From: Octopus vulgaris
Lineage: Eukaryota
Direction: 5' to 3'
Assembly (NCBI GenBank): GCA_951406725.2
Contig: OX597824.1
Span: 76,260,001-76,324,000, forward strand
DNA length: 64,000 nucleotides
Positions within the stretch are counted from its first letter, which is position 1; each line of letters starts with the position of its first letter. Shown piece after piece: positions 518 through 31,965 of this stretch. The notes under the pieces are model-generated. The model saw only the letters and a program-made list of their open reading frames with translations, did no database searches and was not told where the DNA came from. The translations under genes and the position numbers were made by a program.

Positions 518-650
518 TAACAATTGCAGCGTAGAAGGTGTTTGTAAGCATTTAAGAAACACACAAAAGCCGTTCGATTCACTTCAACATTTAAATTTAA
601 TTTGTCAAGATATTTTCGTCGGTTTAAGACCGCGACCTGTTCACTGACAA
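518..650 (-). mobile_element. Short non-coding repeat beside (TA)n, inverted copy of 1675-1806; carries a hammerhead-like motif
   Basis: About 130 bp are reverse-complementary to 1675-1806 with scattered mismatches. Confidence 0.75.
602..650 (-). ncRNA. Minimal hammerhead-like motif, G3-C8 variant core (copy 1)
   Basis: Minus strand: TTGTCA GTGAACA G GTCG-cggtcttaaac-CGAC GAAA ATATCT TGACAA; stems I and II pair; U16.1 is mutated in this copy. Confidence 0.5.
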
Positions 651-1674
651 AAATCCGTGCTGCATCTGAGAAAGTAACAGTTAGTTCATTATATATATGT
701 ACGTATGTATGTGTGTATGTATGTATGCACGCATGTATGCATGGATGCATGTATGTATGTATGTATGTATGTATGTATGTATGTATGTACGTACGTACGC
801 CTGTTTGTATGTATGTGTGTATGTATGTATGTATGTGTGTATATGCTCGCACACACACACTATAAACTGAAAGCTATAAACCAGTAGTGATGGATAGATG
901 TAGACTGACCACTCATCACAACAATATCAAATTTCAACCTCACCCGCCGAAACTAGGAAGTGATTTACGACCCTCACCCCCACGACAAAACTCAAAAACC
1001 TATTATCAGTCACTTATCTCTATATCACAAAACTTTTGTTTTACTATTACTTATCTTTTTTTTTCTTTTACTTTTTTTTCTTTTCTCCATTACATCTAGT
1101 TAGTTCAGGTTATGTATATATACGTATGTATGTGTGTATGTATGTATGTATGTGTGTATGCACGTACGTACGCATGTGCGTATGTATGTATATGCGCACG
1201 TATGCATGTGCGTATGTATGTGTGTGTGTACATGTACGTGCGTATGTACGTGTGTATGCCCATACGCAGGTATGTATGTATGTACATATGTGCTACGTAT
1301 GTATGTGAGTATGTAGGAGAATGTGCAGACGCGTCTGTGAGTATGTGTACATGTGTATGTGCATGTGAACATATGTCCGTGTACTGGTATGTGTCCGTCT
1401 AAGTTGTGTACTTGACTGTTACTTTGTTGAAGGTTGTATATATATACACACATATATGTTTGTTTGTTTGTATAGACGCACACGCATATATATATATATA
1501 TGTGTGGGTGTGTGTTTGTTCCTCTCATCATCGTCTAACGGTGAATGGATACAACGTCTAGGTGCAACTGTGCACATATAACCAATTACATATACACAAG
1601 TACACACAATCATAGAGACACACTCATGAATATTCTTATAATCTTAAATTATATACTTATATATGCTTATCCAC

Positions 1675-1721
1675 TGTCAGTGAACAGGTCACTGTCTTAA
1701 AACGACGAAAATATTTTGACA
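1675..1721 (+). ncRNA. Minimal hammerhead-like motif, G3-C8 variant core (copy 2)
   Basis: TGTCA GTGAACA G GTC-actgtcttaaaac-GAC GAAA ATATTT TGACA; palindromic stem III AATATT. Confidence 0.55.
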
Positions 1722-1861
1722 AATTAAACTTAAATGTTGAAGTGAATCGAACGGCTTTTGTGTGTTTCTTAAATGGTTTACAAACACCTTCCACTCTGCA
1801 ATTGTTTTCGTTTCAGCACACGATCTCAGATCAAATCATTTGCTATGCAAGTACATCTCCG

Positions 1862-6406: not shown

Positions 6407-8135
6407 AACAGCAACAGCAATACGAAATAAATAAAACATAAAAATGCAAATATCGCCCCTGTTTCTTTTGTGTCAGCAGCGAGAAATATGGATGCTTCCA
6501 CATAGATGAAAAAGAATTAAAATTTGCTAGAAAAATTGTTAAAAGAGATGGGAGAAGGGCACCTTTAAACTCTCCATAGGACGTGCTAGAAAATATCGCA
6601 AGATGCACGGTCACATACCGTTGCATCGGAGTCAAGTCTTGACGGGTGGAAAATGCTCCCGAGAGCAAAGTACAAAAATGCTTTGGTCGCGTGTGGGACT
6701 AAAAGACCCATATCATCCGAGGAAGGAAGTTTGGAATCACTGAGGTGAGATTTGGGACGGAAGAAGAAGCTAGATGTAATTCCGCAACCACTTTGCAGAA
6801 TGACAATTTCTTAATCCCTAGCTATCGCGGCCAACGTCTTCTCAAGATTAGGGCACTGAATGTGCCGCCAGAAATATCCATTACCTGGTTAGTGGCGGCC
6901 GTCTTGCCAGTTTAGAAGAAGACGAAGTCACACTACTGGAGGTCAAGAAACTACCTAAGCAAAACTGGTTAGGTATACGTATGGAACTGACCTTGTAATG
7001 CAAGCAGGACCACATCGACCAGCGCTCAGGCTACGGCATCTCAAGCGTTTCCTGGACGGTGAACAGGTGTGGTCGCCGTTCGTCAGACACGACTTTCCGT
7101 AGCTGGTCTTTTTGACAGACCTGCAATCTTGGATCAAACGTAGACCGAGAAAGGGGGCTTGGCACCTCGAGTGCCGTCAAACCCTCTCCGCCCTCCGCCC
7201 TCCGCCAAGCGGGCAATGCGATCTGTAGTAGTTCCACTCTAGCATTCTATAGAGGGTTAGTGAAAGAAAAGTGCGACGACGTTCTCAGGGAAACTCTAGG
7301 CGTCGACGATAATGAGTTAAACAGTCAGTTCGGAAGAACTTTCGGGCCGGGGCCCATGGATAATTTCCAAAGGTCCCTTGCCTGGCAGTGCTACCGAGGA
7401 GCGCTGCCTGTTCGAGATAAACTCTACGGGCACGGAAGTTCCGTCAGCCGAGCCTGCCCGAGGTGTGCTCAGGAAGACGAAACCGTTCTGCACGCACTCA
7501 TCCAGTGCCCGAGTATTGCTGACCTCTGGGTTTATGTCGATCAGCTACTGTCGAGTATAGGATGGATCCGGCTATCAGCTGAATCCATAGTGAAGATTGC
7601 CACGCCGACCTCCTTTAACCGGGAGGGCAAGGCAATTTTCCTTTGTCTAGTGGCTATAGCGAAAGAGGTGGTATAATGGACCCGTTTGAAAGGGCTAAAG
7701 TCAGACACTTTCCTCTTTGGCTAAGGCCTCATCAATTTTTTCAAGTTCCACTTGAAAAAGACGATGAGAGTAGAGAAGGAAGTGCTGTCTCGTAGCAAAT
7801 TTATTGAAAGGTGGGTGAATGTCGGGAAAATGGCCAGTATGAACGGAACAATTCTGAGGTTACACCTATAAAAAGAAAAAAAAGTAATATAAAAGGAGAT
7901 GGGGCACTCTACCCCTTTTTGACCAGGCTCCCGTGGCTTCTATGGGTTTTTCCACGAGTAATCTTTTGAAGCGCCTCTCCCTATTGGGAGATTTATTTGT
8001 TATATTTTTCGTTGTTATTTTGAATGTTTACATGGACCTTTCTTTCGGACAAAACCCTTTGTACTTTTCGTCCTGTCTTTGTCCTTACATGTGTTTGATT
8101 TTTGTTAGCCCTTGTGGCCAATAAACCAGAATTAA
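5885..8135 (+). mobile_element. Tx1/L1-like LINE, internally deleted (ORF1 relic fused to ORF2 C-terminus), flanked by (TTA)n
   Basis: ORF1 relic LIPSYRGQRLLKIRALNVPPEISITWLV at 6811-6895 is homologous to 30821-30905; zinc finger CPRC..ETVLHALIQC; tail ttagcccttgtggccaataaa. The 5' boundary is inferred from the microsatellite. Confidence 0.75.
7012..7870 (+). pseudogene. LINE ORF2 C-terminal region with zf-RVT-type CCHC finger
   Basis: SLAWQCYRGALPVRDKL...CPRCAQEDETVLHALIQCPSIADLW...AKEVV*W...FIERW, with in-frame stops. Confidence 0.85.
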
Positions 8136-17604: not shown

Positions 17605-18170
17605 ACTGGTACTCCGTTAGTTACGACGACGAGGGTTTCAGTTTATCCGATCAACGGAACAGCCCGTTTGTGAAATTAGCGTGCAAGTGGCTGAGCACTT
17701 CACAAATACAAGTACTCCTCACGTAGTTCTCGAGGAGATTCAGTTTGACACAAGAGTGTAACAAGGCTGGCCCTTTGAATTATAGGTACTACTCAGCGGC
17801 GAGCTGGCAGAAACGTTAGCACGCCGGGCGAAATTCGTAGCCGTATTTCATCTGCCGTTACGTTCTGAGTTCAAATTCCGCCGAGGTCAACTTTGCCTTT
17901 CATCCTTTTGGGGTCGATAAATTAAGTACCAGTTACGCACTGAGGTCGATGTAATCGACTTAATCTGTTTGTATGTCCTTGTTTGTCCGCTCTGTGTTTA
18001 TACCCTTGTGGGTAGTAAAGAAATAGGTACTACTCATTTTTGCCAGCTGAGTGGGTTGGAGCAATGTGAAATAAAGTGTCTTGCTCTAAGACATAACGCG
18101 CCGCCGGGAATTGAACTCACGACCTTACGATCGTGAGTCGAATACTCTAACCACTAAGCCACGCACTTTC
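17605..18170 (-). mobile_element. SINE family C, interrupted by a family B insertion
   Basis: Homologous to 20058-20355; tRNA-like head gtggcttagtggttagag...gagttcaattccc on the minus strand. Confidence 0.85.
17796..18022 (+). mobile_element. Full-length SINE family B with 14 bp TSD
   Basis: TSD ataggtactactca at 17782-17795 and 18023-18036; B box GAGTTCAAATTCC. Confidence 0.92.
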
Positions 18171-31220: not shown

Positions 31221-31965
31221 ATGGTCAAGATTAGTTGTGCGAATGCGCGTGGCTTGGAGTCCCCTTGGAAACAAGGGTACTTATTAAATGACAAAGTCAC
31301 ACGATTTGGGAATCATAGCCATAAGTGAGACCATACTCTATGAGCCACGGGTCCTAAAATCCATGTTTGGCGGACAGGTTAACATTTATTTTTCGTCCTG
31401 TCTGCCGAAGATGGGCGGTAGTGGCACGGCGGTAATTTTTCACAAGAGTCTGGATCTCGAAGTAAAGACGATATTCGTAGACCCGGAGGGTAGACTGGCT
31501 GTCGACGGCTGCGATAGGTGCGCTTTTCGACTCCTAGCAGTCTATGCACCGCCTTTAACAGGTCGGCCGGTTATTTTTCGACGTCTAGAAGTATTCCTGG
31601 GAACGTCTCGTCCTTTACTTTTAGTGGGGGATTGGAATGCTACCTTGGACACGCATCTAGACTACGTGGGAAGAGACAGAAATAGACGGGGATGGAAATG
31701 CCTTCGAGACCTGTTCAGACGCTCTCAACTGCCTGCCAGGTACTAACTCGACCACCCAAATGCGCCAACGTGGACATGGACCAACAGCATTGGGTCGTCG
31801 AGATCGTATCTAGATAGGATACTGTGTAGGACAGTTGATAGGGATAGCTTCGGATGTCCACAATTCCACATAGTCAGCTACACGGATCACAAACTTGTGA
31901 CGTGTACGCTAGATTTAGATAAAGCATATAGGCAGGGCCTCGTTTACTGGAAACTGAACGCGTCT
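31221..31965 (+). pseudogene. APE-type endonuclease domain of LINE ORF2 (one frameshift, one stop)
   Basis: MVKISCANARGL..IAISET..GTAVIF..EGR..VYAP..VGDWNA..TWTW..SYLDRI..TDHKLV..WKLNAS. Confidence 0.92.

Follow-up and report, generated by a model that had tools for sequence, protein, structure and literature searches.

Metazoan Penelope-like elements (PLEs) carry minimal hammerhead ribozymes in their pseudo-LTRs, and the consensus of these motifs consists of a U-rich flank, a short stem I, the core CUGANGAH, a stem II opened by a G-C pair, the letters GAAAN, a palindrome, the triplet NUH and an AU-rich flank (Cervera and De la Pena 2014, PMC4209133). They occur as solo copies and as opposite-strand pairs 100-700 bp apart, and weak folding of the monomer is expected of them (PMC4209133). 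The hammerhead of the Anolis PLE overlaps with the beginning of the frame and cuts only with protein present (PMC11167929). The general base of the hammerhead is G12 and the general acid is the 2'-OH of nucleotide 8, and the change G8C is partly rescued by C3G (PMC6155905, PMC8495972). Natural hammerheads with a U3-A8 pair were described by Perreault et al. 2011 (PMC3088659) and in the Cercyon PLEs of Schistosoma (PMC4209133), and in the hammerhead of Anolis Poseidon (PAc) an engineered C3G/G8C double mutant had its cleavage partly restored (Frangieh et al. 2024, PMC11167929).

The locus that we compare with these systems lies in a 64-kb stretch of DNA (the window). An earlier note had pointed to two inverted motifs near its start, and inspection of the sequence confirms that both copies read TGTCA-GTGAACA-G-GTC...GAC-GAAA-ATATYT-TGACA. 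The core GUGAACA, with G3 and C8, sits in a minimal type I hammerhead layout that is common to the two copies; the copies diverge in orientation, i.e. they point apart, and are separated by 1025 nt. The features are listed below, with hammerhead position numbers assigned by analogy with PMC4209133.

649 to 603 (601..651 with the 7-bp stem I), minus strand: hammerhead-like motif, copy 1, G3 at 644 and C8 at 639
within copy 1, minus strand: stem II of 4 bp, a bulge and 1 bp, -3.5 kcal/mol; C replaces U at position 16.1 (609)
1675..1721, plus strand: hammerhead-like motif, copy 2
1675-1679 with 1717-1721, plus strand: stem I of copy 2, 5 bp
1680 (G3) to 1686 (A9), plus strand: core of copy 2, with C8 at 1685; extra G at 1687
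1680..1685, plus strand: swapped core pair of copy 2, G3 (1680) and C8 (1685), from the sequence and identical in copy 1
1688-1690 with 1704-1706, plus strand: stem II of copy 2, with an A-C mismatch at 1691/1703 and a U-A pair at 1693/1702
1688 with 1706, plus strand: G10.1 and C11.1 of copy 2
1707-1710, plus strand: G12 (1707) to A15.1 (1710) of copy 2
1710-1715, plus strand: palindrome AAUAUU of copy 2, U16.1 at 1715; U17 follows at 1716
between 1716 and 1717, plus strand: predicted cut of copy 2, by analogy with the numbering of PMC4209133

If the motif is compared with the PLE consensus, it fits in everything except letters 3 and 8 and the identity of the extra base (PMC4209133). An extra base between A9 and 10.1 and the pair G10.1-C11.1 are present in both copies, stem I is short (5 bp in copy 2, 7 bp in copy 1), and the flanks are U-rich on the 5' side and AU-rich on the 3' side. 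These features, together with the short palindromic stem III and a stem I of 5-7 bp, are shared with the published PLE motifs. The extra base is G here as opposed to H in the consensus, and G is also found in the Nasonia row of the published alignment (PMC4209133). The GAAA, the palindromic 15.2-16.2 region and the NUH triplet are seen in copy 2 and in the majority of the repeat family described below; copy 1 departs from them by its C at 16.1. The arrangement is familiar as well, since PLE hammerheads likewise are mostly solo copies, with pairs on opposite strands, and the Drosophila virilis motif likewise has a bulge in stem II, in addition to a 2-nt palindromic insert (PMC4209133).

The conspicuous difference is found in the core. 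The sequence CUGANGA with C3-G8 is absent from both copies, and the Watson-Crick pair between positions 3 and 8 is retained as G3-C8, so the earlier proposal that a double change keeps the pair holds in both copies. The natural U3-A8 motifs offer a parallel, as they too contain a compensated 3-8 change that escapes CUGANGA searches (PMC3088659, PMC4209133). In U3-A8, however, the pyrimidine at 3 and the purine at 8 are kept, whereas G3-C8 reverses both and places C at the general-acid position. The Anolis PAc double mutant has the same core pair in the same ribozyme class, but it is a laboratory mutant of a different element (PMC11167929). None of the 56 motifs in Fig. S3 of PMC4209133 starts with G3: most are C3-G8, two are U3-A8 and one is U3-G8. 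The earlier note had also reasoned that standard searches would overlook such a variant, and indeed the descriptors of published PLE searches, CUGANGA or U3-A8, would miss it. In the accessible text of the literature searched, which included PMC3088659, PMC3884650, PMC8495972, PMC6765202, PMC6155905, PMC12192606, PMC7229834 and bioRxiv 10.1101/2022.07.19.500677, G3-C8 appears only as an engineered mutant, and an earlier report of a natural one is possible. From the letters and their layout we consider it likely that the G3-C8 motif is a natural, seemingly undescribed variant of the PLE-type hammerhead.

The two copies are not identical. There are 9 differences over 132 nt and four of them are inside the motif. 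The pair at 1693/1702 is G-C in copy 1 and U-A in copy 2, which preserves pairing in stem II beyond a bulge of one base; among the registers of copy 1 that are compatible with a hammerhead, this is the best. A single covarying pair was reached by 271 out of 500 shuffles, and two sequences cannot test covariation. At 1691 copy 2 has an A opposite C1703, giving an A-C mismatch at the fourth stem II pair and leaving three closing pairs; this A is likely the product of CpG decay. PLE minimal hammerheads have four or more pairs in stem II. The remaining 3-bp stem II of copy 2 is computed at +0.7 kcal/mol and the stem II region is predicted to be unfolded, while in copy 1 the C at 16.1 (window position 609) breaks both the A15.1-U16.1 pair and the palindrome. 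Because each copy bears a lesion of its own, neither represents the intact form. The earlier reading of two hammerhead motifs was thus right about the layout and overlooked the lesions, C16.1 in copy 1 and the broken stem II in copy 2. The hammerhead is not the lowest-energy fold of copy 2 (-3.6 vs -7.3 kcal/mol), and the lowest-energy fold of copy 1 moves stem II over G12-A13. As ribozymes, both copies in the window would probably have little or no activity.

Two further suggestions about activity had been made. The UUU triplet of copy 2 had been taken as a sign of possibly low activity; in this class it gives no particular cause for concern, as UUU is the family form and the PLE hammerhead of the oyster Crassostrea also ends in UUU (PMC4209133). 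It had also been proposed that the inverted copies could pair with each other in one transcript. A duplex is indeed predicted, at about -191 kcal/mol, but one copy in it is antisense; such pairing would bury the motif, and would hinder the ribozyme instead of assisting it, and it cannot yield the sense-sense dimer that PLE hammerheads probably need. A read-through transcript contains one sense and one antisense copy, and therefore the inverted copies cannot act as a ribozyme dimer.

One and the same dispersed repeat, about 200 nt long, harbours both motifs. BLASTN aligns 519-649 on the minus strand with 1675-1806 on the plus strand at 93.2% over 132 nt, and with 7-letter words it finds no third copy in the 64-kb window. 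The two copies extend as follows.

519..668, minus strand: repeat copy 1, with the family 5' part preserved (about 650-668) and an abrupt end at 519
1675..1860, plus strand: repeat copy 2, without about 18-20 nt of the family 5' part

(TA)n runs adjoin both of them, at 519 in copy 1 and at about 1859-1860 in copy 2. The stretches 395-500, 860-1110 and 1500-1670 were considered as further pieces of the repeat and set aside, as they gave only weak local alignments (scores 23-30, for which there is no null distribution).

Part of the repeat is contained in 21 public runs with four organism labels. The region 1640-1862 is matched by 7565, 5935 and 3845 contigs in runs X2, X5 and X8, respectively, which bear three organism labels. 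The summed depth inside 1675-1860 is about a thousandfold or more higher than just upstream, with the rise at 1672-1679, although this figure is not a copy number. The repeat is a high-copy family. In the same three runs, loose ends of the matches lie at 1675 and 1859-1860. The family continues for about 18 nt 5' of 1675 with the same sequence as the 5' part of copy 1, beyond which the loose-end consensus turns to AT-rich noise; on the 3' side it ends at 1859-1860 and is followed by AT-rich DNA. Among the public runs listed as containing the repeat there is no RNA run. The family patterns gave no match in viral and prokaryote genome contigs, and BLASTN with the repeat gave none in plasmids. 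The one match in metagenome contigs (L001) was rejected as chance, because it lies on a GC-rich contig of bacterial type and has neither stem I nor stem III.

The variability along the family is informative for the 3' part of the motif. Between 1708 and 1718 no alternative letter reaches 2% in X2, X5 or X8, which makes GAAA, the palindrome, U16.1 and U17 the form typical of the family and C16.1 a change private to copy 1. The one common variant in the visible part of the motif is 1719 A>G (9.5-14.6%), and the G can still pair with U1677. CpG-type changes at C11.1 and G12 amount to 2.2-6.3%, vs 2.4-9.5% at CpG sites in the flanks; the two positions decay like the flanks, hence the genomic copies decay neutrally and selection is not seen. 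Outside the motif five sites are split near 40-65% in the family, and the window copies differ at one of them, 1729 (T in about 55-67%). The two copies are therefore likely to stem from different source copies, judging from this split, yet they share G3 and C8. The family letter table starts at 1704 and omits even the known copy differences at 1691, 1693 and 1702, so that G3 and C8 are known from the two window copies. Further upstream, the loose-end consensus of X8 (10 contigs, agreement 0.58, noisy) has T at position 3 and keeps C8, and that of X2 (12 contigs, agreement 0.54, noisy) has no visible core.

Where does the repeat come from? Several traits point to PLEs. PLE insertions often bear an inverted, 5'-truncated copy at their 5' end (PMC8557442), and opposite-strand joints at 1674-1675, at least six among the 15 joints listed of 20 (one or two contigs each, 80% likeness), fit this arrangement. 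Position 1675 is also the point where copy 2 stops matching the family. About 145 nt lie between the predicted cut and the family end, which resembles the Anolis PLE, where some 100-150 nt separate the hammerhead from the 3' end of insertions and the targets are AT-rich (PMC11167929). No PLE reverse transcriptase or GIY-YIG domain was detected by Pfam in 149 window frames, namely P0001 and the 148 longest of the 239 complex frames, out of 625 frames of at least 50 aa; it is for this reason that the PLE origin is inferred. A comparison with Naiad PLEs was limited to 9 short repeat words, searched as exact words on one strand, with 0 occurrences in the supplement of PMC8557442. The non-LTR retrozymes of animals, which are likely PLE-derived, are also non-coding repeats, a few hundred bases long, that contain a type I hammerhead; they form tandem arrays and mostly have canonical hammerheads, as opposed to the solo copies seen here (PMC7229834; bioRxiv 10.64898/2026.07.22.740005). 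The window contains solo copies, and none of the 15 joints listed of 20 links 1860 head-to-tail with 1675. Taken together, these sequence traits suggest that the repeat is likely the terminal piece (pseudo-LTR and tail) of a Penelope-like retroelement. In addition, a stretch resembling a splice acceptor is seen 5' of copy 1, at about 650-690 on the minus strand, with a CTAAC similar to a branch point, a pyrimidine run and CAG. It may be a chance occurrence; it sits where the shared 5' part of the family starts, and the Penelope element of Drosophila has an intron that ends at stem I (PMC4209133).

It could be argued that the motif is a chance look-alike in a short repeat of another class, such as a SINE, a MITE or a Helitron-like element. 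There is no PLE frame beside either copy and none of the Rfam hammerhead models matches either motif up to E=10; moreover, the change to AT-rich noise some 18 nt upstream of 1675 looks more like a fixed 5' end than like ragged 5' truncation. The Rfam result carries little weight, because a phage G3-C8 motif with long stems (L015, see below) is likewise without an Rfam match up to E=1. To assess chance, copy 2 (186 nt) was shuffled with its dinucleotides preserved, and each shuffle was searched on both strands. A loose descriptor that accepts any Watson-Crick 3-8 pair gave 128 matches per 100,000 shuffles, i.e. about 1 in 800, a rate that has to be read against the many repeat families of a genome. 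A strict PLE-type descriptor, which asks for a Watson-Crick 3-8 pair, G10.1-C11.1, a palindromic stem III and five Watson-Crick stem I pairs, gave none in 100,000; the descriptor was composed after the motif had been seen, and what it strictly requires agrees with the published consensus (PMC4209133). Several features beyond the core fit the PLE consensus, Rfam finds nothing tRNA-like within 400-2000, and the inverted joints at the 5' end also speak against another class of repeat. The layout of a PLE-type hammerhead is real and not due to chance, the motif is very probably derived from a hammerhead, and a look-alike in some other repeat seems to us quite improbable. A further possibility is a coding origin, in which the repeat would be part of a protein-coding frame and its codons would have produced the motif incidentally. 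One open frame runs through copy 2, and the same frame is open in copy 1 up to a one-base gap:

1673..1858, plus strand: stop-free frame of 62 codons, spanning the whole of copy 2

A frame of this length arose in 1412 out of 20,000 shuffles, and three protein searches gave no homologue, the only 2 matches being junk frames from tandem repeats. In any case the coding and the hammerhead readings are compatible, given the overlap with the start of the frame known in PLEs (PMC11167929). The frame may be due to chance or may be the start of a PLE frame, and the reading of the motif as a mere by-product of codons can hardly be maintained.

A more serious objection accepts the descent from a PLE hammerhead and holds that the ribozyme was already inactive in the source element, where G3 and C8 hitch-hiked in a setting that had no need of cleavage. 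PLEs do not seem to depend strictly on cleavage: in the Anolis element it is dispensable for insertion in vitro, and in that study no reads end at the cut site (PMC11167929), while Naiad PLEs thrive without canonical hammerheads (PMC8557442). The C3G/G8C double mutant is just partly active (PMC11167929, PMC8495972), and in the public runs there is neither a depth step at the predicted cut site nor a pile-up of molecule starts or ends, features that contigs show poorly. On the other hand, two transversions restore precisely the tertiary Watson-Crick pair, the other core letters are intact and a stem II pair is compensated, which is better explained by selection for the fold. Loss of activity before amplification is therefore, in our view, unlikely, though it deserves to be kept in mind. 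We lean towards the explanation that the source element had a functional G3-C8 hammerhead and that the window motifs are decaying copies of a high-copy, PLE-terminal repeat, as their letters suggest. A stronger version holds that a PLE-derived family of recent amplification now has an active G3-C8 hammerhead as a fixed trait, in thousands of copies and in several related animal species; it is less likely than not and can only be put forward tentatively.

The swap probably arose in the source element and was then copied along with it. We speculate that two sense copies within the source RNA would form stem III by pairing of their AAUAUU palindromes, that G3-C8 would keep the 2'-OH of nucleotide 8 in position as general acid with G12 as general base, and that the result would be a slow cleavage after U17. 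The AAUAUU dimer stem III is computed at only -0.2 kcal/mol, and because this duplex is so weak, help from a protein, presumably the element's own, would be likely. Should the stronger version be correct, hammerheads with a swapped core would be a hidden class overlooked by CUGANGA-based surveys, and some PLE lineages reported to be without hammerheads may in fact have them. In the hammerhead, the general acid is positioned by the 3-8 pair. A G3-C8 family that is natural and of high copy number would demonstrate that evolution can maintain the reversed pair; if such a family holds, the descriptors used in genome and virome surveys need a G3-C8 core. The comparison of paired (G3-C8) and unpaired cores among families would help to decide if hammerheads are a necessity for PLEs or simply carried along.

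It is also possible to compare the window motif with G3-C8 loci of viral contigs, which were collected with one fixed stem II motif and sorted by the letters at 3 and 8. Full hammerhead layouts were seen in 1 out of 18 G3-C8 loci, 2 out of 37 G3-G8 loci and 6 out of 52 C3-C8 loci, where the two G3-G8 layouts are one sequence with weak stems and the six C3-C8 layouts are two sequences. In this small test G3-C8 is not enriched over the unpaired controls. The one convincing example is L015, at 40-100 on the minus strand of a 169,713-bp IMG/VR phage contig, which has a full type I layout with G3-C8, a stem I of 5 bp and a stem III of 9-10 bp. In another viral contig, L077, the layout is compact and similar to type III, with C3-C8 unpaired and stems of 4-5 bp, due either to chance or to decay.

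A relaxed hammerhead scan of the whole 64-kb window returned 4 matches, i.e. the two copies and the loci 36082(+) and 53922(-). The latter two are loose matches, with C3-G8 and U3-A8, respectively, and long stem II loops, and are likely due to chance. All Rfam matches in 400-2000 were dismissed as microsatellite artefacts, every one of them being under the gathering score. Between the two copies, a short AGTTAGTTCA block is present at 679-730 and again at 1097-1160, each time succeeded by (TA)n and (GTAT)n runs that resemble each other, perhaps as a result of local duplication.

The window as a whole is microsatellite-rich DNA of animal type with 29-45% GC and LINE fragments. A tRNA-like match at 18102-18163 on the minus strand scores 30.1 bits, just over the Rfam gathering score, and continues with a non-tRNA body to about 17920; we take this to be, in all likelihood, the head of a tRNA-derived SINE. 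A frame of 112 codons at 2242-2577 on the minus strand, and also 2652-2779, contains a stretch similar to PD..D/ExK and has no Pfam match; to our eyes the 2242-2577 frame resembles the C-terminal restriction-like endonuclease of an R2/R4-type LINE. Part of the 2242-2577/2652-2779 stretch is repeated 363 nt away at 85%. Two LINE fragments were detected through their domains:

7116-7673, plus strand: LINE fragment with zf-RVT, E=1.7e-08
31288-31743, plus strand: LINE fragment with Exo_endo_phos, E=7.3e-05, under the cut-off
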